IMG/VR virus record: IMGVR_UViG_2526164613_000015
DNA from: a virus
Lineage: Duplodnaviria; Heunggongvirae; Uroviricota; Caudoviricetes
Direction: 5' to 3' (one strand)
Length of the DNA: 18,446 bases
Positions within the stretch are counted from its first letter, which is position 1, and each line of letters begins with the position of its first letter. The notes beneath the pieces were generated by a model that was not told the origin of the DNA, did not search any database, and saw nothing but the letters and a program-made list of their open reading frames with translations. Both the position numbers and the translations under genes were made by a program. This document shows, piece after piece, positions 1,070 through 15,188 of this stretch.

Positions 1070-1348
1070 TTACCTCCAGATGCGTTGCTGGAATGTGCGG
1101 GACGGACGCGGTGGGCGCTCGGAGTACGGCAGCCTGACGTAGATTATCCAGTGACGATAATCGAGGCTGAGGGCTTTCCTAAACTCATACCCACGTCTGC
1201 GGTAGTTCTGAATCAGCCATTCGGCCTGTTCTTCAGTGCATGGGGCGTGCCGGAACCAGTCAGATTTGAATGCATGAGAACGCCGCCCGTGCCTGCTGGC
1301 AAAGACGGCTGAATTATCAGAATTGTGTAGTCTGGAATTTTGCGCCAT
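1070..1348 (-). CDS. hypothetical protein (92 aa), possibly N-terminal piece of a disrupted gene continuing in 424..1068
   Basis: ORF ends 1 nt before the GTG start of 424..1068; no recognisable motifs. Confidence 0.3.
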   Translation of the reverse strand: MAQNSRLHNSDNSAVFASRHGRRSHAFKSDWFRHAPCTEEQAEWLIQNYRRRGYEFRKALSLDYRHWIIYVRLPYSERPPRPSRTFQQRIWR

Positions 1349-1417
1349 CGGCTTTCTCCGGTGGCACAGTGTTACTCAACAGGGGTTCAGCCCTGCGCTG
1401 AATTGTAGATGAATTCA

Positions 1418-1675
1418 CTAATCTTCAAAAGCAGAAAAACCAGCCTTAATCCCAGCTTCTTTCAGAGACGGCAACGATGTGACAAATTCATTTTCACGCA
1501 AAATAAAACCATCCGTCACAAGTCCATCCACAAAGTAAATTAACGCAGCTCCACTCTTCCTATGTAGAGACTGTAAACATTTAATACGGCAGTGGCTGAC
1601 AATAGCGCCATTCTCAACGCGCACAGTATAGAGGCCATCTTCACTAAAAATTTCACGTAATTCTTCGATTTTCAT
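1418..1675 (-). CDS. small hypothetical prophage protein (85 aa); occupies the position that rem holds next to hokD in E. coli K-12 Qin
   Basis: ATG at 1675..1673 preceded by GGAAGGA Shine-Dalgarno 8 nt upstream; ORF-track version (1418..1723) likely over-extended. Synteny argument only. Confidence 0.5.
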   Translation of the reverse strand: MKIEELREIFSEDGLYTVRVENGAIVSHCRIKCLQSLHRKSGAALIYFVDGLVTDGFILRENEFVTSLPSLKEAGIKAGFSAFED

Positions 1676-1800
1676 CAACAGAATCCTTCCAGATAAATAG
1701 CACTCCCCCTGTTCGGGGTCCATCCCTCTTCTCCCTGCGCGCTACTTAAGTATTTTTGATTCTATTCTGGCACCGTCCAAAACTTCAAACACGTTGAAAA

Positions 1801-1827
1801 TAAAAACAAAAAACCCGCCGAAGCGGG
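1801..1827 (-). terminator. rho-independent terminator downstream of the HTH-ImmA gene
   Basis: Minus strand reads CCCGC-TTCG-GCGGG followed by TTTTTTGTTTTT; hairpin 1814..1827. Same hairpin sequence recurs at 3649..3662. Confidence 0.6.
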
Positions 1828-1832
1828 TATAC

Positions 1833-2939
1833 TCAAACAATCTGGAAAATATTTCTTGGATTTGTAATAGGTCTGTTGATGGAGAACAACTCACGAATTA
1901 AATCTTGGCTCAAGCCAGTTTTCATAAGAATTCTTAGCCAGGTTGCATCATCCAGCATTTCAATCGCCTCGGCCAGCATGCCGGGTTCTTCAGGGCGCAA
2001 AAGTTCATCACCAGGTTCAACTCTCGTATACCCTCTGGAATTAAGATGCATATAGCCAGTTCTTGCCTGTTCCTGGGTCAATAAGCCTAATGCGCTGGCT
2101 CGATAAATACACATTTTAAGGCTGATTTTCCATCTAAGTTTAAATTCAACCAGAGCATTCCAGTCGAATTGCTTACCTCGTATTCGTGGAAATTCTTTAA
2201 TGAAAGATAACCTGGGAACTAATAAGGCGCTCGAAAAGTGATCGGCTTGTGATTCCGTAAGTTTATCACCTGTCGTTATGCCCTCATGCATTACTAAATG
2301 CCCTAATTCATGACCTAAATCAGAGCGAAATCTACATATGCTTTTTTTAACATTGTTCCTGATGATAACAGGCCTGTTATTGTGAACAGTAAAAGCATCA
2401 ACACGATCATCGACTCCCGTAACATGCGCAACGATTACCCCTAAACTCTCCGCCAATTTAACCATTGATGATATAGGGCCAAGACCTAAATTCCAGGCAC
2501 GGCGACAATCTTCTGCCACTCGCTCAATATCATTCGGAGTAAGTAATTCAGCCCCTGGGTGCTCCGGTATGTTAACGTCAGGAAATTCGATTTCACCTTC
2601 AACAGCAGAAATTATAATATTAAGAATCTCAGCCCTGGCCAATACACTATTAGTCAGCGTTTGAGTCCTGGACTTCTTACTCCGAAAATGGCAGACATCA
2701 CTTTCCAGAGCGTATTTTCGTTCAGTAAAAAGAAAACTGGACTTAATCATAAGCGCTGAAGATATTAACTCAAGACATTGCTCCGATGGCCTGCACCCCT
2801 TCTCCAGTTTGCTAACAAATTGCTTTGTCTTGCCAATTTTTTCGGCTAACTCTTCACAAGAAAGCCCAACAGCCATTCTCGCTAGTTTGAGCTTATCACC
2901 CCGATACTCAGTGAAGTTATTCACCTGATGTTCCATCAC
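1833..2939 (-). CDS. fused XRE-type HTH / ImmA-IrrE family zinc metallopeptidase (COG2856-like), 368 aa
   Basis: N-terminal HTH (LARMAVGLSCEELAEKIGKTKQFVSKLEKG); HEXXH zinc-binding motif in SDLGHELGHLVMHEG; start is GTG at 2939 or ATG at 2936; overlaps upstream ORF by about 20 nt. Confidence 0.8.
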   Translation of the reverse strand: MMEHQVNNFTEYRGDKLKLARMAVGLSCEELAEKIGKTKQFVSKLEKGCRPSEQCLELISSALMIKSSFLFTERKYALESDVCHFRSKKSRTQTLTNSVLARAEILNIIISAVEGEIEFPDVNIPEHPGAELLTPNDIERVAEDCRRAWNLGLGPISSMVKLAESLGVIVAHVTGVDDRVDAFTVHNNRPVIIRNNVKKSICRFRSDLGHELGHLVMHEGITTGDKLTESQADHFSSALLVPRLSFIKEFPRIRGKQFDWNALVEFKLRWKISLKMCIYRASALGLLTQEQARTGYMHLNSRGYTRVEPGDELLRPEEPGMLAEAIEMLDDATWLRILMKTGLSQDLIRELFSINRPITNPRNIFQIV

Positions 2940-3567
2940 TGCTCACATCCAAATCTTTATCCTTCGTACGCCGACGAAGAGGCACCTTATTAATCTCCGC
3001 TTCGTCAGGGAGTGTGTTATAATCAAGAGGCATAAGCGGCATCGATGCTGTAGATTGATGAGAAACTATACTAATCTGAGCACCATAAGTATTAAATCCA
3101 ACAAGAGCTACCTCCCAACGAGGCAGTGTGGACTCTAATTCACCATCGCCCTCTTCGGATAAAAAAGGCTCAGCTATGACTCGCCATGTAATATCTTGCT
3201 CAGCCTCAACATCACCAAACAATGAGAGCTGCTCATACTCTACTTTATTTCGACGCAGACGATGTTTCTTTTTGGGGTTATTAATGCAATCTTTGGTAAA
3301 TTGTAGCGGAACTTTATTTAAAGCAACTACATAGTCCAACCCCTTGGAAATCATCTCAAGGCCAGGAATTGCATCTTCATTTTGAATAAGATGATTTCTG
3401 ACCCAATCATAAGCCCTTACACCTTCAGACCAGTTGCTGTCTAATGCGTGCTTATGATAGTACAGCTGCTCAAGTACGTTAGCGATCTCCGCCAACAAGT
3501 GGCGAACATAGTTTTCAGCAAGATAAGGTTGAAATTCCCAACAAGGAGCTAACTGATTTTCATTCAT
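2917..3567 (-). CDS. hypothetical acidic protein (216 aa), first gene of a two-gene operon with the HTH-ImmA peptidase
   Basis: ATG at 3567; no TM segments; acidic stretches (GDVEAEQD, SEEGDGELES); stop overlaps start of 1833..2939; preceded by promoter-like sequence with perfect TTGACA. Confidence 0.6.
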   Translation of the reverse strand: MNENQLAPCWEFQPYLAENYVRHLLAEIANVLEQLYYHKHALDSNWSEGVRAYDWVRNHLIQNEDAIPGLEMISKGLDYVVALNKVPLQFTKDCINNPKKKHRLRRNKVEYEQLSLFGDVEAEQDITWRVIAEPFLSEEGDGELESTLPRWEVALVGFNTYGAQISIVSHQSTASMPLMPLDYNTLPDEAEINKVPLRRRTKDKDLDVSSDGTSGE

Positions 3568-3595
3568 TTCAAGTTTCGCTTTTTTTAGAATTCGT

Positions 3596-3631
3596 AAACC
3601 ACATATTTTCGCATTTTTCTATTTTTGTCAA
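3596..3631 (-). promoter_or_regulatory. candidate sigma70 promoter for the 216-aa / HTH-ImmA operon
   Basis: Minus-strand TTGACA at 3631..3626, AT-rich spacer, weak -10 candidates (AAATAT/AATATG) about 17-18 nt downstream; about 35-60 nt upstream of the ATG at 3567. Confidence 0.35.
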
Positions 3632-3643
3632 CCAGACTAATGC

Positions 3644-3662
3644 AAAAACCCGCCGAAGCGGG
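3644..3662 (-). terminator. rho-independent terminator, probable 3' end of the hok transcript
   Basis: Minus strand CCCGC-TTCG-GCGGG followed by TTTTT; lies about 70 nt downstream of the hok stop; identical to hairpin at 1814..1827. Confidence 0.6.
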
Positions 3663-3732
3663 TTAAGTGCGGGTGCGTTGAGGATGCCTGGCACATCAGA
3701 GGTGGCGGGAGATTACTCCCCCGCCGGGTCTC

Positions 3733-3888
3733 TTACTCCTCAGGTTCGTAAGCTGTGAAGACAGCGACCTCCGTCTGGCCGGTTCGGATTCGTACCTCGC
3801 AGAGGTCTTTCCTCGTTACCAGTGCCGTCACTATGACGGTTAAACAGATGACGATCAGGGCGATTAACATCGCCTTTTGCTGCTTCAT
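3733..3888 (-). CDS. hokD: Hok/Gef family type I toxin (51 aa), HokD/RelF-like
   Basis: Manual translation of minus strand gives MKQQKAMLIALIVICLTVIVTALVTRKDLCEVRIRTGQTEVAVFTAYEPEE, matching HokD/RelF as recalled; single TM helix plus conserved C-terminal Cys region. Below the 60-aa ORF-track cutoff. Confidence 0.85.
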   Translation of the reverse strand: MKQQKAMLIALIVICLTVIVTALVTRKDLCEVRIRTGQTEVAVFTAYEPEE

Positions 3889-4099
3889 AGCCTGCTTCTC
3901 CTTGACCTTTTGGTCCGTAAGAGGCTAATCTCTATGTGTCGCATAGATATGGCCTCAGATTAATGTTAAGCGTCTTGCAGGACGCGTAATGTTAACTGGG
4001 GCTTTTCTCTATCTGCCTTTTGGTGTTCATGCCTGAGGCAGATAGCCTCAAGCACCCGCAGCAATTCTACTTAACTCCCGTCACCTCGCCAATATAAAA

Positions 4100-4189
4100 T
4101 CAATCAGAAAGGCGATCCATAAGAACAATAGCAAGACAATAAATTGCCACTACAGCCGCAATAGCCAGCGCGCATTTGAGAACCAGCAC
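4100..4189 (-). CDS. candidate small hydrophobic peptide (29 aa)
   Basis: GTG at 4189..4187 preceded by AGGAGG at 5-nt spacing; translation MLVLKCALAIAAVVAIYCLAIVLMDRLSD is a single predicted TM helix; about 70 nt downstream of the SIR2-like gene stop. Confidence 0.3.
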   Translation of the reverse strand: MLVLKCALAIAAVVAIYCLAIVLMDRLSD

Positions 4190-4259
4190 GATAACCTCCT
4201 GTATTGGACGTACACCAGCTCTGATAAATATGAGGCTGCCTCTTTAACTTCGCATTGCG

Positions 4260-5291
4260 CTACCAATCAATAAAATCAGTGATGTTATCCAACCTAATTA
4301 CAGTAACTTCCCGTCTCAACTGGTTTTTCCAATATATCTCACGAGCGTTTTGTTCACCAGCACCGCTCCACTCAATTACTCTTAAAGGCTTAGAGGTTAG
4401 GTAAGGTCGAATAAGCAGGTTAAGGTGAATATCGAGACCAGAGTAACCAAACAATATTATTTCTTCTGATTCAAATAATGCAAACTGCAAATAATCCCAG
4501 TACGTAGAAAGAACATTAGATGCTGCTATAACTGACGGTTTTCTTTTTATATGAGTTAACACTATATGCTCACTAGGTTCATCTATGTCAAGAGTAAGTT
4601 GTGAGCGTGAAAGTTTTAAAACATTTTCATGCTGATTAATAAATAGTGGTGAACCATGCAAGTGCAAATAATAACCAAACCTACGATTGTATTTCCGTTC
4701 GAGCGCTGCAGAGGAAAATCCGTGGCTTAGCATCCCATCAACTAAAACCCCATCATACCCGTTGAATATATCATTATCTATGAATGAATTGTATAATAAT
4801 TTGTCATAGTTTAATGTCGCGATATGTGAGTGTGTGTTCTTTACAAACTCCACAAGCGCATTTTCGAATCTTTGTGGCAAACCTTTATCGTAATTATGCA
4901 ACCTGGTTGCAACTTTGTGAATATAAGTGGCGGTAATTTTGGGGAAGTTTAGTCCATCTTCAGTAAGCCAATGCACGTTCCCCTCTCCAATTTGAGCAAG
5001 AGCTTTACAATATGTGACAGCCTGGTGAAGGGTATCCAACTCATGTTCTCCTTCTGGTGGACCTTGCCGCTGAAGACAACGCTCGATAAGTTGCTTGTGG
5101 ATATCTTTTAAAAAATTGGGGCGATGCCAAATTTCTTCCAACGCTCTGTCTAAGGAGAAGTGAGCAGGATCTAAAGCCATACCGAGACCGTTGCCGAATA
5201 TTATTAATTTTCTTGCCATATAGGGGGACTCATATTGGAATAACGCTGGATAGCGTAGCGCGATACGCTTAAGTTTAGGATTAATAGACAT
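4260..5291 (-). CDS. SIR2-like (sirtuin-fold, SIR2_2/DUF4020-type) putative NADase, 343 aa, stand-alone
   Basis: Ordered motifs LIIFGNGLGMA (Gly-rich loop), ATLNYDKLL, YLHLHGS, ILFGYSGLD as in defence-associated SIR2 domains; gene and 370-bp upstream region are markedly AT-rich. Confidence 0.8.
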   Translation of the reverse strand: MSINPKLKRIALRYPALFQYESPYMARKLIIFGNGLGMALDPAHFSLDRALEEIWHRPNFLKDIHKQLIERCLQRQGPPEGEHELDTLHQAVTYCKALAQIGEGNVHWLTEDGLNFPKITATYIHKVATRLHNYDKGLPQRFENALVEFVKNTHSHIATLNYDKLLYNSFIDNDIFNGYDGVLVDGMLSHGFSSAALERKYNRRFGYYLHLHGSPLFINQHENVLKLSRSQLTLDIDEPSEHIVLTHIKRKPSVIAASNVLSTYWDYLQFALFESEEIILFGYSGLDIHLNLLIRPYLTSKPLRVIEWSGAGEQNAREIYWKNQLRREVTVIRLDNITDFIDW

Positions 5292-5659
5292 TCCGTTTGA
5301 TTACACTCGTTATTACAAACTTGCATGCAAAGAAGCCCAAGCTGTTAGGTAAACAGAGACCGCAGTGGCAAGATAATCTAGATATAGCCTATAAAATCCA
5401 ACAACAAATAGCGGCCTGTTTTCTATGACTTTTCTTTTCCCTAAATATCACTTATCTAATAAAATGCAATAATGTATTGCACAGTATTTAATGTGTATTA
5501 ATATAGATAAGTATTGGTCTTATTTGATAACAAATCCTGAGCCTCAAAATGTCTGCTTTTCACACAAAACCAACAAGTAGGCTATTTTTAGCTCTGTGCC
5601 GCGAAAATGTCAATTCATATCCGAACCAATACTCTTTAATTTCATTACCTGTGACAATT

Positions 5660-6067
5660 CTAGGCATATCCCTGATAGAACGCCAATACACGCTGCATAA
5701 CTTCGCTCTTCCGGCACTCGCGACAGATTATGTTCATACGCCTGTCGTAGCGGCGTATTTCTCCGTCGGGTAATGTCCAGATAAGGCCCGGATCAACCAC
5801 AACAGGTTTCTTCACCTTTGCCCTCGAGAGTTTTTTGCGGGCGTTTTGCCAGTCCTTACGAGCCTGTTCTGACGGGAACAACCCATAGCCAGAGTGATAT
5901 ACATCACCACTGGCAACCAGCTCTCTGGCAAGAATGCTCATCAGATATCTTGTCGCACCTGTTTTAGCTTCCAGTTGCCGTAGCGTCTCACGACCGCTCT
6001 GGCGCACGAGTTCCACCACCTGCCCTTTAATTTTTTCCCGCTCTTCTTGTGTAAAAACTTTTGCCAC
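5660..6067 (-). CDS. hypothetical prophage protein (135 aa), basic C-terminus, downstream of replication initiator
   Basis: GTG start with GGGGG Shine-Dalgarno-like element 4-5 nt upstream; 40 nt after the initiator gene stop; no family recognised. Confidence 0.5.
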   Translation of the reverse strand: MAKVFTQEEREKIKGQVVELVRQSGRETLRQLEAKTGATRYLMSILARELVASGDVYHSGYGLFPSEQARKDWQNARKKLSRAKVKKPVVVDPGLIWTLPDGEIRRYDRRMNIICRECRKSEVMQRVLAFYQGYA

Positions 6068-7073: not shown

Positions 7074-7575
7074 AATTCCATCCAGCTTTTTGTTGGTATT
7101 GCTGTCGATACGCAAGTTTGAAAGCAATTGCTTTTTCTATAAGTTCGTCAGTTTCACGATCCACTACGGCAGGATCAGCAAAAAGCAGTCCGGACTCCAC
7201 CACATCGCCATATTCTTTGTTTAACCCGGCGATCATGTACGTGATGCTTTTTCCGTCACTAATTTCACGATACAACCTGAAATCATTAATCCGGATAGCC
7301 TCCATAATTGCAGGCACTAGCGCCGTGAACTTTTCACGCTTATCCCTAGTGTCGATAGCCTTCCAGCGTTCGAATATCTTCACTCGATTAACGCCAAGCG
7401 CTCGCTGATCAACCGCGCCACCTTCATCTGTGACACGCTGAACCTCGATGTTCGGGCGCTCTTTCAAAGCCCAGAATGCTTCAGTGATTAATATCGTCGC
7501 CTGCTCCTGTGTCATTCCTGGTCGACATATCCAGGCATCCAGAGCCTCACGAGCCTGTTCAGGAGTGATTTTCAT
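7054..7575 (-). CDS. hypothetical early-region protein (173 aa) at the CII/YdaT position downstream of the cro-like gene
   Basis: ATG at 7575; overlaps the cro-like stop by 17 nt and the initiator start by about 20 nt, indicating an operon; family not securely recognised. Confidence 0.55.
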   Translation of the reverse strand: MKITPEQAREALDAWICRPGMTQEQATILITEAFWALKERPNIEVQRVTDEGGAVDQRALGVNRVKIFERWKAIDTRDKREKFTALVPAIMEAIRINDFRLYREISDGKSITYMIAGLNKEYGDVVESGLLFADPAVVDRETDELIEKAIAFKLAYRQQYQQKAGWNYEPSFC

Positions 7576-7786
7576 TGTTCAACCGCCCCGCCCGCTTCGT
7601 CTTACGATATTCGTCATAAACCTTGGGATCATACTGAAGCTCGCCGCCAGATGCCTCCTGTAGACGCATCGCGCGACCTTCAGGAACCAGCTCTTGCCAT
7701 TGAGAAACAGCAGATGGGTCAACGCCAGCAGCTTTCGCTACTTTAGCTTTCGTACCGTAAAAATTAATTACGTCTGATTTAAACAT
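7559..7786 (-). CDS. dicC: Cro-like regulator, DicC/YdaS-like (75 aa)
   Basis: ATG at 7786 with GGAGG 4 nt upstream; sequence ...VPEGRAMRLQEASGGELQYDPKVYDEYRKTKRAG resembles DicC as recalled; divergent from the repressor gene. Confidence 0.7.
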   Translation of the reverse strand: MFKSDVINFYGTKAKVAKAAGVDPSAVSQWQELVPEGRAMRLQEASGGELQYDPKVYDEYRKTKRAGRLNNENHS

Positions 7787-7798
7787 CGCACCTCCAAT

Positions 7799-7814
7799 AT
7801 TGAGTTTTCTCAAT
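7799..7814. promoter_or_regulatory. candidate operator in the dicA/dicC-like divergent promoter region
   Basis: Perfect palindrome ATTGAG-TTTT-CTCAAT, with CTCAAGGAATCTCAAG half-site repeats at 7822-7837, in the 77-bp intergenic region. Confidence 0.45.
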
Positions 7815-7863
7815 GCTAATCACTCAAGGAATCTCAAGCCAAGGGTTATTAAGATATCTAAAT

Positions 7864-8271
7864 ATGAACGAGAAAACTTTAGGTCAACGCATTAGAGAAA
7901 GACGTAAGCAGGTAGGCTTAAGTCAAAACGGTTTAAGCAAAGCTGCTGGCGTATCTGGCTCATCAATTTCATTATGGGAAAGTGACCATACAGCCCCGCG
8001 CGGGCAAAATTTGCATCGCCTCGCCGAGGTATTGCAATGTTCACCAACCTGGATACTGTTTGGCGACGAGGACAAAACACCAGCTCCCCCTGTTTCACTC
8101 GATAGTGCCTTAGACTTATCGGAAGATGAGTTAGAGATGTTGCGTTTGTATCGCGCACTTCCTAAATCAGAGCAACAAGCACAACTCAGCGAACTCCGCG
8201 CCCGCGTTGAGAATTTTAATCGCCTGTTCACCGAGCTATTAGAGGCTCGCAAACGCAACAAGCATCAATAA
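7864..8271 (+). CDS. dicA: CI-type prophage repressor, DicA-like XRE HTH protein (135 aa)
   Basis: HTH LGQRIRERRKQVGLSQNGLSKAAGVSGSSISLWES; motifs VLQCSPTWILFGDEDK and RARVENFNRLF resemble DicA as recalled; ATG at 7864 gives DicA-like length (ORF track starts at 7813). Confidence 0.8.
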   Translation: MNEKTLGQRIRERRKQVGLSQNGLSKAAGVSGSSISLWESDHTAPRGQNLHRLAEVLQCSPTWILFGDEDKTPAPPVSLDSALDLSEDELEMLRLYRALPKSEQQAQLSELRARVENFNRLFTELLEARKRNKHQ

Positions 8272-9559: not shown

Positions 9560-9612
9560 TTTCTGGTGACATTTGGCGGTATCAGTTTTACTCCGTGACT
9601 GCTCTGCCGCCC
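9560..9612 (+). ncRNA. dicF: DicF-like small RNA
   Basis: TTTCTGGTGACATTTGGCGGTATCAGTTTTACTCCGTGACTGCTCTGCCGCCC followed by TTTTT matches K-12 DicF as recalled with about one mismatch; lies immediately upstream of the dicB-like gene. Confidence 0.65.
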
Positions 9613-12728: not shown

Positions 12729-12932
12729 ATGAGCAGCATATTTTTAACCGAAAATGAATTGCAAACGTTAACGGGCTGCAAATATGCAAGCCACCAGCGC
12801 AACTGGTTAATAAAAAATGGGCTTCCGTTCTATACCAATCGTAGTGGAAAACCGATCGTCAGTCGGGAACTGTTTACCTGTATAAAAACTTTACCACCAC
12901 GTGAGGCTGAACCTGATTTCGGTGCGATCTAA
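12729..12932 (+). CDS. excisionase-like small protein (67 aa) translationally coupled to the integrase
   Basis: ATG start; stop TAA overlaps the integrase ATG (TAATG); immediately upstream of int as in lambdoid xis-int modules. Confidence 0.55.
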   Translation: MSSIFLTENELQTLTGCKYASHQRNWLIKNGLPFYTNRSGKPIVSRELFTCIKTLPPREAEPDFGAI

Positions 12933-13957
12933 TGGGAAGACGAAGGAAAAATCCCGAACACGAAAAATTACCGCCAAAGGTATACCCCAATAAATATAGT
13001 TATGTATGGAAACCGACATCCAGAGAATCTGTAACCTTAACTGCAATCGAGGATGGTTTAGCCGCATTATGGAAAAAGTATGAAGAAACGGTTAACCATC
13101 GCGATCGCGCAATGACATTTGGGCGTTTGTGGGAAAAATTTCTCGCCAGCGCCTATTACAGCGAGCTTAGTCCTAGAACTCAAAAAGATTATCTGCAACA
13201 TCAAAAAAAGTTGCTGGCCGTATTCGGTAAGGTGCTGGCCGATTCTGTAAAACCAGAGCACATCAGACGATACATGGACAAAAGAGGCGAGCAGAGTAAA
13301 ACGCAGGCAAACCATGAAAAAAGCAGTATGTCGCGCGTTTATAGTTGGGGGTATGAACGAGGGTATGTAAAGGCTAATCCTTGTGCCGGTGTAAGTAAAT
13401 TCAAGGCAAAAAACCGAGAGCGCTATGTGACTGACAAAGAATACCAGGCCGTATTAAGCGTGGCTCCTGTGCCTGTTTTTATCGCGATGGAAATTGCATA
13501 TCTGTGCGCAGCAAGGATTTCCGATGTGTTATCTCTGAAATGGGAACAGATCGGAAACGATGGGATCTTTATCCAGCAAGGTAAAACAGGAAAGAAACAG
13601 ATAAAAGCCTGGAGCCCCCGCCTGCAATCAGTTATAGAAAAAGCCAAACAACTCCCCAAGTCGGCCTATGTAATCAGCAATCAGTACGGCAACCGTTACA
13701 TGTATAAAGGATTTAATGAAATGTGGGTTGAGGCAAGAAATTTAGCAGGACAGATATCTGGGATCGCCACCGATTTTACGTTCCATGACCTTAAAGCCAA
13801 GGGGATATCAGATTACGAAGGTAGTAGCCGGGATAAACAACTTTTCTCTGGTCACAAGACCGAAGGACAGGTATTAATCTATGACAGGAAAGTGAAGATC
13901 TCACCTACACTGGATGTACCTTTACCCCAGAATATTCCAACAAAATATTCCAAGTAA
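12932..13957 (+). CDS. int: tyrosine recombinase / phage integrase (341 aa)
   Basis: C-terminal catalytic region FTFHDLKAKGISDY...SGHK...QVLIYDRK consistent with the His/Tyr box of tyrosine recombinases; 3' end lies about 50 nt from the tRNA-derived att core. Confidence 0.85.
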   Translation: MGRRRKNPEHEKLPPKVYPNKYSYVWKPTSRESVTLTAIEDGLAALWKKYEETVNHRDRAMTFGRLWEKFLASAYYSELSPRTQKDYLQHQKKLLAVFGKVLADSVKPEHIRRYMDKRGEQSKTQANHEKSSMSRVYSWGYERGYVKANPCAGVSKFKAKNRERYVTDKEYQAVLSVAPVPVFIAMEIAYLCAARISDVLSLKWEQIGNDGIFIQQGKTGKKQIKAWSPRLQSVIEKAKQLPKSAYVISNQYGNRYMYKGFNEMWVEARNLAGQISGIATDFTFHDLKAKGISDYEGSSRDKQLFSGHKTEGQVLIYDRKVKISPTLDVPLPQNIPTKYSK

Positions 13958-14465: not shown

Positions 14466-15107
14466 TTAATTTTTTAAAACGAAGTTACCTCTGTCAGGGT
14501 CAAAAGCACAATTATCTCTTCCTACAATCATTGAAACTGCGATTGACTCCCTGCTCAAAGGATGAGCCGCCCTTGTTTTAACAAGATGTATTAATGCCAT
14601 TTTATCATACAACATACAAACATTTGAATTCATTGAATTCCTCATAAATACCCCATCTTCTGGTTCACATAATGTAACAGGGCATGTTCGTAAGCTCTCT
14701 GGCACTTGCAATTGTGCATGCTCCACATTAAATGCACATACTTCAATTTTATCTAACAACTCCTCTAACTGGTAGTTAGAAAGCAAATCCATATTTTCGA
14801 GCATCTCAATTTCACGCAGTACTGTAACTTCACGGCTTGTCAAACTACCATGATTAAGTGTACGTTCAATATGTTCTATATATTGAAGGCCAATCTGGAT
14901 ATTATCATTCGATAAACCATCCTGGTTAAGACTTCCCATAAAATATCCATTTACCTGCATAGGTCGTATTGACACCATCAACTCACCCAGTCTTATTTGA
15001 GCTTCTCCACGAATAGTCTGATTACGTATCTCAGACAAGGTTTCTTGAGGAATGTCAGACAAAAAACTAACCCCAGGTAAAATATAAGGCGTTAAATCTA
15101 CAGGCAT
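14466..15107 (-). CDS. nleG: NleG family type III secreted effector (U-box E3 ubiquitin ligase), 213 aa
   Basis: MP N-terminus; conserved C-terminal U-box region CPVTL...GVFMRNS...HPLSRESI...FD...GNFV shared with three downstream paralogs; AT-rich. Confidence 0.8.
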   Translation of the reverse strand: MPVDLTPYILPGVSFLSDIPQETLSEIRNQTIRGEAQIRLGELMVSIRPMQVNGYFMGSLNQDGLSNDNIQIGLQYIEHIERTLNHGSLTSREVTVLREIEMLENMDLLSNYQLEELLDKIEVCAFNVEHAQLQVPESLRTCPVTLCEPEDGVFMRNSMNSNVCMLYDKMALIHLVKTRAAHPLSRESIAVSMIVGRDNCAFDPDRGNFVLKN

Positions 15108-15188
15108 TCCTCTCCCTCCATTTTAATAACTTAATTTTGCTTTAGTAAAAAATAAAAGTACATAAAACTATATTTATATCATTAATTA

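Follow-up and report, generated by a model that had tools for sequence, protein, structure and literature searches.

The DNA analyzed here (the window) is the whole 18,446-nucleotide (nt) stretch of the virus record IMGVR_UViG_2526164613_000015. Its interval from 1.8 to 5.6 kb carries three units, all on the minus strand: a cassette of the RosmerTA toxin-antitoxin (TA) family (1833-3567), the toxin gene hokD (3733-3888) and a stand-alone gene of the SIR2 family (4260-5291). Comparison with sister prophages led us to propose that this interval is probably an accessory (moron) region with two cargo slots arranged around a conserved hok/sok locus, located where the nin-equivalent part begins in the early-right operon of a lambdoid prophage of the Qin type. 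Slot A, between a conserved element of ~100 nt and the hok promoter, would hold the single-gene SIR2 cassette; slot B, placed exactly at the hok terminator hairpin, would hold RosmerTA with a 20-nt copy of that hairpin on either side. An earlier analysis of the window (the original prediction) had proposed three independent cargo units between positions 1801 and 5560. The three units were found at those positions, and the bounds nearly match the breakpoints identified in sister prophages (1809 and ~5560-5602). The independence of the units held for the SIR2 and Rosmer cassettes, which have breakpoints of their own; hok turned out to be a near-constant anchor instead.

Probable cargo slots on both sides of the hok locus

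The distribution of the units was determined in 5426 complete E. coli genomes. Sequences of the hok type were present in 4727 of them (median, two copies), the Rosmer cassette in 237 and the SIR2 cassette in 46 (30 at ≥99% identity and 16 at ~86%), the latter adjoining the gene for a DUF977 protein in 40 of the 40 records listed. A query spanning the junctions detected the three units together in eight genomes, seven labeled O55:H7 and one with no label. Alignment with sister prophages placed the limits of the Rosmer cassette at 1809 and 3643, those of the hok block at 3644 and 4242, and those of the SIR2 cassette at 4243 and ~5560-5602, this last boundary being fuzzy (~5560 to 5610). Prophages L002 to L004 have the same flanks without Rosmer, and in L003 and L004, where SIR2, hok and rem are present, positions 1829-3642 are missing. 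In L005, L006 and L007 hok and Rosmer are kept and the segment from 4243 to ~5603 is replaced by a QueH-like gene, by genes for a SMEK-domain protein and a methyltransferase, and by a gene for a 484-amino-acid (aa) protein, respectively; the Qin prophage of E. coli K-12 carries relBE at the position of SIR2. Judging from these alignments, the SIR2 and Rosmer cassettes are independently exchangeable cargo; hok behaves less as freely exchanged cargo than as a nearly constant anchor with a variable slot on either side. The presence/absence polymorphism across related prophages that the original prediction had anticipated is therefore strong, and the interval is not invariant. The composition of the cassettes does not match the backbone either: their GC content (0.38-0.42) and GC content at third codon positions (0.34-0.38) are below the backbone values (0.48-0.55 and 0.45-0.61). 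The composition of hok is backbone-like.

To define the contents of both slots, 80 IMG/VR loci anchored on the DUF977 protein were surveyed. Slot A, taken as the segment from DUF977 to the hok leader, was scored in 57 loci and slot B, from the hok terminator to a gene for a 92-aa protein, in 46. At least 15 distinct contents were found in slot A. A QueH-like gene occupies it in 31 loci, SIR2 in four, and Beta_protein with cll (gop-beta-cll or PD-Lambda-2-like) in three. Other contents are a set of genes matching NsnA, NsnB and NsnC (1e-123, 1e-122 and 1e-89), which we take to be the Menshen system, a DUF2326 and CTD10 ABC-3C pair (PADLOC candidate PDC-M68B), and an AbiU/AIPR protein. Three more have no PADLOC match: an NA37 nucleoid-associated-like protein with a 410-aa partner (L034, 10112-12518, minus strand), the 484-aa protein, found in O55:H7 DEC5A-type strains (L007, 9342-10796, minus strand), and the SMEK-domain protein with its methyltransferase (L006, 8832-11407). 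By their location, the NA37 pair, the 484-aa protein and the SMEK protein are further defense candidates. Slot B is empty in 14 loci, contains only rem in nine, Rosmer in eight and a small lipoprotein-like gene in two. An NgoMIV-type restriction-modification (R-M) pair was assigned to 10 loci as a length class (L016, L017-L021, L042, L064, L078 and L080), of which L016 was inspected. One locus (L025, 10880-11742) has a Fic/Doc gene with a 59-aa upstream open reading frame (ORF) and, as around Rosmer, a copy of the hok terminator hairpin on each side. This hairpin may be a site where recombination or insertion recurs. Conserved flanks enclosing many alternative cargos, validated defense systems among them, characterize the region as a hotspot. 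The suggestion that this interval is prone to hold defense or exclusion functions is thus supported by location, as the same slots hold known defense systems in sister prophages.

The left anchor of slot A is the element of ~100 nt that follows the DUF977 gene (5560-5659, minus strand), with high identity from 5603 to 5659 and lower identity down to ~5560. It is common to prophages with seven different slot A contents, and includes a TTGACA at 5608-5613 (TTGACA-18-AAAAAT, 10/12) and an imperfect GGCACA...TGTGCC inverted repeat. Possibly, the element provides slot A cargo with a common promoter or regulatory site.

These modules could also be mainly selfish addiction or stabilization elements that hold a decaying prophage in the chromosome, any anti-phage effect being incidental. 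Post-segregational killing is the classic behavior of hok/sok and of type II-like TA systems. A related prophage TA system has been described as making clpP essential. The near ubiquity of hok and the presence of relBE in the same slot of K-12 Qin also agree with such a role. However, the same slots hold non-TA defense systems (Menshen, AbiU and R-M), and the RosmerTA family has been validated as anti-phage, the two roles being compatible. We consider a mainly selfish nature of the modules to be rather unlikely.

The stand-alone SIR2 gene

The SIR2 gene (4260-5291, minus strand) encodes a protein of 343 aa from the ATG at 5291, or of 319 aa from the start annotated in RefSeq at 5219. It matches Pfam PF13289 (SIR2_2) with 26 bits, the cut-off being 24.5. 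It has a SIR2 domain with the SIR2 Rossmann fold, and its AlphaFold2 model is confident (pLDDT 87). In the 319-aa numbering, the characteristic motifs are GNGLG at 9, LNYD at 136, HLHGS at 186 and GYSG at 258. Little or no variation is seen in GNGLG, TLNYD (N137), HLHGS (H186 and H188) and GYSGxD, and all 32 sequences compared have N137, H186 and H188. The motifs of N137 and H188 presumably correspond to N112 and H152 of ThsA, an equivalence taken from motif similarity and not from residue-level superposition.

The homologues are ~319-323 aa long and share 56-82% identity among the 120 listed, which come from several Gamma- and Betaproteobacteria (including Pantoea, Serratia, Klebsiella, Aeromonas, Vibrio, Pseudoalteromonas and Chromobacterium) and from a Desulfobacteria metagenome-assembled genome. 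A profile search of 1.84 billion representatives recovered 356 relatives (representative clusters), and the best 150 of them are at most 397 aa long, with a single SIR2 stretch covering nearly the whole protein. Among 185,579 species genomes, relatives were located in 112 stretches, in taxa that range from Pseudomonas and Stenotrophomonas to Rhodobacteraceae and Chloroflexi. Between the two alleles in E. coli, the ratio of nonsynonymous to synonymous substitution rates (dN/dS) is 0.14. The protein had no match in PHROG or in 50,697 phage records, and a single distant match in plasmids. A comparison of the family profile with the sequences in PDB gave only chance matches (HmuT, E 0.12), that is, no link by sequence to a solved structure.

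Two Vibrio gene calls of the family (P0043 and P0051, of 506 and 541 aa) have a 190-220-aa N-terminal region of no assigned family in frame before an internal MTRKLIIFGNG; they are either real fusions with a partner domain or artefacts of start codon calling.

The 24 codons that precede the RefSeq start (5220-5291, minus strand) are in frame and have a conserved R-x-ALRYPxLF core in homologues of the Escherichia/Klebsiella clade; homologues from Serratia, Aeromonas and taxa further removed lack the extension. Since the extension is kept in frame and conserved in the clade, the 343-aa ORF is probably the real product there and the RefSeq start too short. Upstream of the gene, an AT-rich segment of the cassette (5292-5602, minus strand, GC ~0.36) is its putative leader and promoter region, the GC content of 5220-5602 being 0.36. 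The original prediction had given each unit an AT-rich upstream region or a terminator of its own, which agrees with this segment and with hairpins found after hok and after the Rosmer antitoxin gene; no convincing terminator was found downstream of SIR2. It had also associated a small peptide with SIR2. A 40-aa ORF in another frame (5204-5326) overlaps the SIR2 extension and is open in both E. coli alleles. A conserved 29-aa ORF does exist as well, and it belongs to the flank on the hok side, as described below.

The identity of this protein to the SIR2s of SIR2-HerA, ThsA, KomC, DSR and Avs5 is just 14-18%. Unlike in SIR2-HerA (Nezha), no HerA-type gene adjoins it in the window, nor was one found at 80 genomic loci; unlike in Thoeris ThsA, DSR and Avs5, no SLOG, DSR C-terminal sensor or STAND fusion and no ThsB was found, the single SIR2 stretch spanning nearly the whole protein in the best 150 of the 356 relatives. 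No match was obtained to the ThsA or DSR PADLOC models at E ≤ 0.01. Assignment to SIR2-HerA, ThsA or DSR was rejected, the defining partner or domain being absent. The most widespread neighbor family of SIR2 occurs in five of the 80 loci, four of these from related Rhodobacteraceae. No description of the stand-alone family was found in the searchable literature. We conclude that it would be a distinct, partner-less branch of the defense-type SIR2 superfamily. Its fold, its intact Asn and His motifs and the known defense systems in the slot are the reasons to infer a role in defense; by analogy with the effector domains of SIR2-HerA, Thoeris, DSR and Avs5, the most likely activity would be infection-triggered consumption of NAD+. 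A further step, which we put forward tentatively and as somewhat less than an even chance, is that the gene is the founder of a novel family of single-gene anti-phage systems. Its product would be a self-contained NADase able to sense infection with no partner such as HerA, SLOG or STAND; in the Escherichia/Klebsiella clade the 24-residue extension would modulate it, and Qin-type prophages would have acquired the gene from chromosomes.

Alternatively, the protein could work as a protein deacylase or an ADP-ribosyltransferase, its role being regulatory, host-directed or one in lysogenic conversion, or as a counter-defense enzyme of the phage that acts on NAD-derived signals. A precedent for the host-directed role is SliP of Campylobacter jejuni, a secreted sirtuin-like deacetylase of the DUF4917 family, and some members of the SIR2 family described here match DUF4917. 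A non-defense role is also in line with the high conservation of the family under purifying selection and with the lack of both a sensor domain and a partner. Furthermore, the host is an attaching-effacing E. coli and the neighboring prophage DNA has NleG-type effectors. The fold, the motifs and the slot named above point to defense, and we regard this alternative as unlikely.

RosmerTA and the hok locus

The HTH-ImmA cassette of the original prediction is present, and can now be refined: the helix-turn-helix (HTH) gene is the antitoxin half of a two-gene system. This gene, rmrA (1833-2939, minus strand; Pfam, PADLOC and PHROG), encodes 368 aa from the GTG at 2939 or 367 aa from the ATG at 2936, with an XRE-type HTH (HTH_3, residues 17-63, 5e-7) and an ImmA/IrrE (M78) Zn-peptidase domain (Peptidase_M78, residues 177-282, 6e-11) whose HEXXH motif is HELGH at residue 210. 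RmrA matches 14 PADLOC RmrA models, the best at 6.2e-105 over residues 12-351, and phrog_2439 at 8e-123. The toxin gene, rmrT (2917-3567, minus strand), encodes an acidic protein of 216 aa that matches the PADLOC RmrT model PDLC03929 (4.6e-25, model positions 5-195 of 198) and no Pfam domain. Among named sources (21 clusters), the RmrT family comes from Enterobacterales only. A nuclease-like fold of RmrT is a weak lead. The two genes are adjacent and co-oriented, and the rmrT stop overlaps the rmrA start by 20 nt; on this arrangement and the family matches, they are assigned to one operon, a two-gene RosmerTA system in which rmrA is the antitoxin gene. Inside the cassette, the region upstream of rmrT (3568-3643, minus strand) is AT-rich and presumably acts as the promoter of the cassette. 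Direct reading of the sequence shows a TTGACA at 3626-3631; a consensus promoter scan gave no call at 3568-3643.

The system shares with known RosmerTA systems the toxin-first overlapping operon, the antitoxin with XRE HTH and ImmA/M78 HEXXH, full-length PADLOC matches and a prophage location. The RosmerTA family protects against phage, and deletion of rmrA is not tolerated (Millman et al. 2022). ImmA-type antitoxins pair with diverse RmrT toxins (Ernits et al. 2023). The RmrT described here has no known domain, and its possible nuclease-like fold contrasts with the characterized RmrT of the Gordonia phage Kita, which is membrane-depolarizing.

A 20-nt direct repeat flanks the Rosmer insert. 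The distal copy (ACCCGCTTCGGCGGGTTTTT on the minus strand, 1809-1828) lies 4 nt past the rmrA stop and forms the right end of the cassette; the proximal copy (3644-3663, minus strand) is the hok mRNA terminator hairpin and, by comparison with the Rosmer-less L003 and L004, the insertion point of slot B. Intrinsic-terminator-like hairpins are found at 3647-3664, after hok, and at 1813-1828, after rmrA. The two copies of the repeat are exact and 1835 nt apart, and none were expected (200 shuffles). There are two copies per hok locus where the near-identical Rosmer allele is present and one in Rosmer-less loci; in L003 and L004 homology joins 1828 directly to 3643 through a single hairpin copy. 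The rmrTA pair moves as a single 1815-bp cassette, present or absent in otherwise similar prophages, and is 100% identical in prophages with a flank identity of just 87-95%. An allele with 80% identity was located in another lambdoid nin region without hok; its synonymous sites are saturated and dN/dS is not computable. For a 93% allele, dN/dS of rmrA is 0.03.

The HTH-ImmA gene could be read instead as an anti-repressor switch of the ImmR/ImmA kind, controlling prophage induction. It has the same domain pair as those regulators of mobile elements, and it matches PHROG families annotated as transcriptional regulators. However, the prophage already has a cI/cro-type switch 4.6 kb away (7559-8271), and the gene always travels with the overlapping rmrT in the 1815-bp cassette, present or absent in similar prophages. 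An antitoxin is also favored by the 14 RmrA models that the protein matches over the full length, and by a match to the NCBIfam 'repressor/antitoxin' entry, although with 155.9 bits against a curated cut-off of 335. We regard the anti-repressor role as very improbable.

The hok gene between the two slots (3733-3888, minus strand) encodes a 51-aa Hok/Gef membrane toxin (PF01848, 1.2e-23; phrog_251, 2.8e-33) that shares the protein accession WP_000813254.1 with K-12 HokD. A promoter-like site (4064-4092, TTGGCG-17-TAGAAT; consensus scan) precedes the 5′ leader of the hok mRNA, which starts at ~4057 and includes the Sok-target region (3886-4092 with the promoter, minus strand). The leader (3886-4057) matches Rfam RF01794 over its full length, 1-157, with 107.5 bits (gathering score, 59). 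In the predicted fold of the 414-nt mRNA (4057 to 3644), nt 1-12 pair just upstream of the terminator, and the minimum-free-energy structure has a z of -8.35 against 100 shuffles. A mok-like ORF of 19 codons (3885-3944) lies inside the leader, its stop overlapping the hok ATG (ATGA); it is unlike R1 mok, which is a long overlapping gene. A candidate antisense Sok promoter, TTGACC...TAATCT on the plus strand, was seen by eye only. K-12 hokD matches the hok query over the coding sequence and the downstream part only; therefore, the copy in the window, unlike that of K-12, retains the regulatory leader. The locus thus shares with the known hok/sok systems (plasmid R1, chromosomal hokA-E and K-12 Qin hokD/relF) a HokD identical to that of K-12, the promoter, the RF01794 leader, the predicted 5′-3′ fold-back and the terminator, and it looks functional, with its regulation intact, in O55:H7. 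It differs from them in doubling as the anchor and insertion point of two cargo slots.

In L016 (7030-9260), hok has been replaced by an R-M pair of the NgoMIV type. The hok promoter and leader are retained, and the ORF of the C5-methyltransferase begins exactly at the mok-like ATG. The R-M pair appears to be driven by the hok 5′ region and is possibly regulated by Sok.

Just upstream of the hok promoter, an unannotated hydrophobic ORF of 29 aa (VLVLKCALAIAAVVAIYCLAIVLMDRLSD; 4100-4189, minus strand) was read from the sequence, preceded by an AGGAGG ribosome-binding site. It stays open in six sequence variants, one with an in-frame one-codon deletion, and has no Pfam, NCBIfam or PHROG match. 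It was assigned to the hok-side flank because SIR2-less prophages carry it together with that flank; L006 and L007, which lack SIR2, share sequence up to 4242, and the ORF was accordingly rejected as part of the SIR2 unit. Its product could be a second toxin of a type-I-like kind, or else a small membrane peptide.

Function, prophage setting and significance

In the mechanism that we propose for the two-slot region, the cassettes would be swapped between prophages, most probably through recombination in the conserved flanks. As known for the family, RmrA, with its HTH and Zn-peptidase, would restrain RmrT, and phage infection would free the toxin and lead to abortive infection. The hok/sok pair, in which a stable toxin mRNA is held by an unstable antisense RNA, would kill the cell when transcription stops, a family property that may serve prophage maintenance and possibly phage exclusion. 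SIR2 would be activated by infection and abort it through depletion of NAD+, which is the weakest step of the mechanism.

Several observations weigh against this interpretation. QueH, the commonest slot A cargo, is not a defense system. The rem-like backbone gene is as AT-rich as the cassettes, for which reason composition alone is not diagnostic. The cassette promoters are only consensus-like or read by eye, and the roles of this Rosmer allele and of SIR2 are predicted from their families. With regard to SIR2, its conservation is unusually high for a defense gene, its PADLOC matches are weak (24 bits), and neither a sensor domain nor a conserved partner was found in the 80 genomic loci. Outside E. 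coli, in the three contexts covered (Klebsiella, Aeromonas and Serratia), it is a singleton beside housekeeping or unrelated genes, with no evident defense island.

Annotation and the ORF map identify the window as a lambdoid prophage of the Qin type. It is 99.98% identical to the chromosome of the E. coli O55:H7 strain DEC5B (NZ_CP038389.1, reverse strand). The differences are two 1-nt deletions and two substitutions, and the 1.8-5.6 kb interval has none of them. A cI-like repressor gene is found at 7813-8271 on the plus strand, and the early-right operon, on the minus strand, has the order cro, YdaT-like, O-like, DUF977, the interval, rem-like, the 92-aa gene, DUF968, RusA and Q. The gene order of K-12 Qin is the same (dicA-dicC-...-relB-relE-hokD-rem-ydfU-ydfT). 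The DUF977 gene (5660-6067, minus strand; PF06163, 6e-29), the backbone anchor immediately upstream of slot A, matches phrog_142, the Ren-like exclusion protein, at 6e-45; the interval therefore starts where the lambda nin region starts, which bears out its predicted nin-equivalent position. Downstream of slot B, the anchor (1070-1723, minus strand; phrog_340 and phrog_1212) consists of the rem-like gene (1418-1723 or 1418-1678) and the 92-aa gene (1070-1348); DUF968, RusA and Q come next. Conservation of hok, rem and the 92-aa gene in most relatives would fit an ordinary fixed backbone in which the clustering is an annotation coincidence, but the genome counts and the sister-prophage breakpoints refute it, both cassettes being missing from most relatives with conserved flanks, their frequencies differing more than 100-fold (46, 237 and 4727 genomes) and their GC content being unlike that of the backbone, so that its probability is negligible.

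A permissive Rfam scan of 1300-5800 found nothing except the hok leader, and no tRNAs were found. With respect to RefSeq DEC5B, one T is missing at 229 and another at 487 of the window, and the substitutions are at 710 and 18270; the deletions split the reading frame of the DUF968 gene (ydfU-like, 21-1068) into pieces. The small RNA DicF is located at 9561-9612 (plus strand; RF00039, 77 bits). Downstream of it lie dicB and a DUF1482 gene, and together they form the Qin-type module for inhibition of cell division. Past the integrase gene (12932-13957), at 14466-17485 (minus strand) and from 17504 onward, very AT-rich DNA with three DUF1076 genes and a gene for an NleG-family type III secretion system effector is followed by an IS2 copy and tail-fiber genes. 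This DNA looks like an effector locus of an adjacent prophage.

Hotspots of defense genes are known in the prophages P2 and P4 (Rousset et al. 2022; Vassallo et al. 2022) and in integrative and conjugative elements. The region described here shares with the P2/P4 hotspots and the lambda nin/moron regions the conserved flanks around variable, AT-rich and defense-rich cargo, usually with one or two systems per slot. Unlike the P2/P4 hotspots, it lies in Qin/Rac-type lambdoid prophages, behind ren/DUF977 and at the hok terminator, and has a type I TA locus as a fixed center between its slots. No description of a Qin-type two-slot arrangement was found in the searchable literature. As a locus it is of a largely ordinary kind, Rosmer and hok belonging to known families and SIR2 being a candidate defense gene.

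The results place two cargo slots precisely, in a form that is easy to search for, in a prophage type that is among the commonest in E. coli. The presence in them of Menshen, gop-beta-cll-like, AbiU, ABC-3C, R-M, relBE and Rosmer means that unassigned slot cargo can be treated as defense candidates by location. The reading of the HTH-ImmA gene is corrected from a prophage regulator to an antitoxin. The most useful lead is SIR2, a compact, partner-less member of an NAD-depleting superfamily, which would show how a bare SIR2 domain is regulated.

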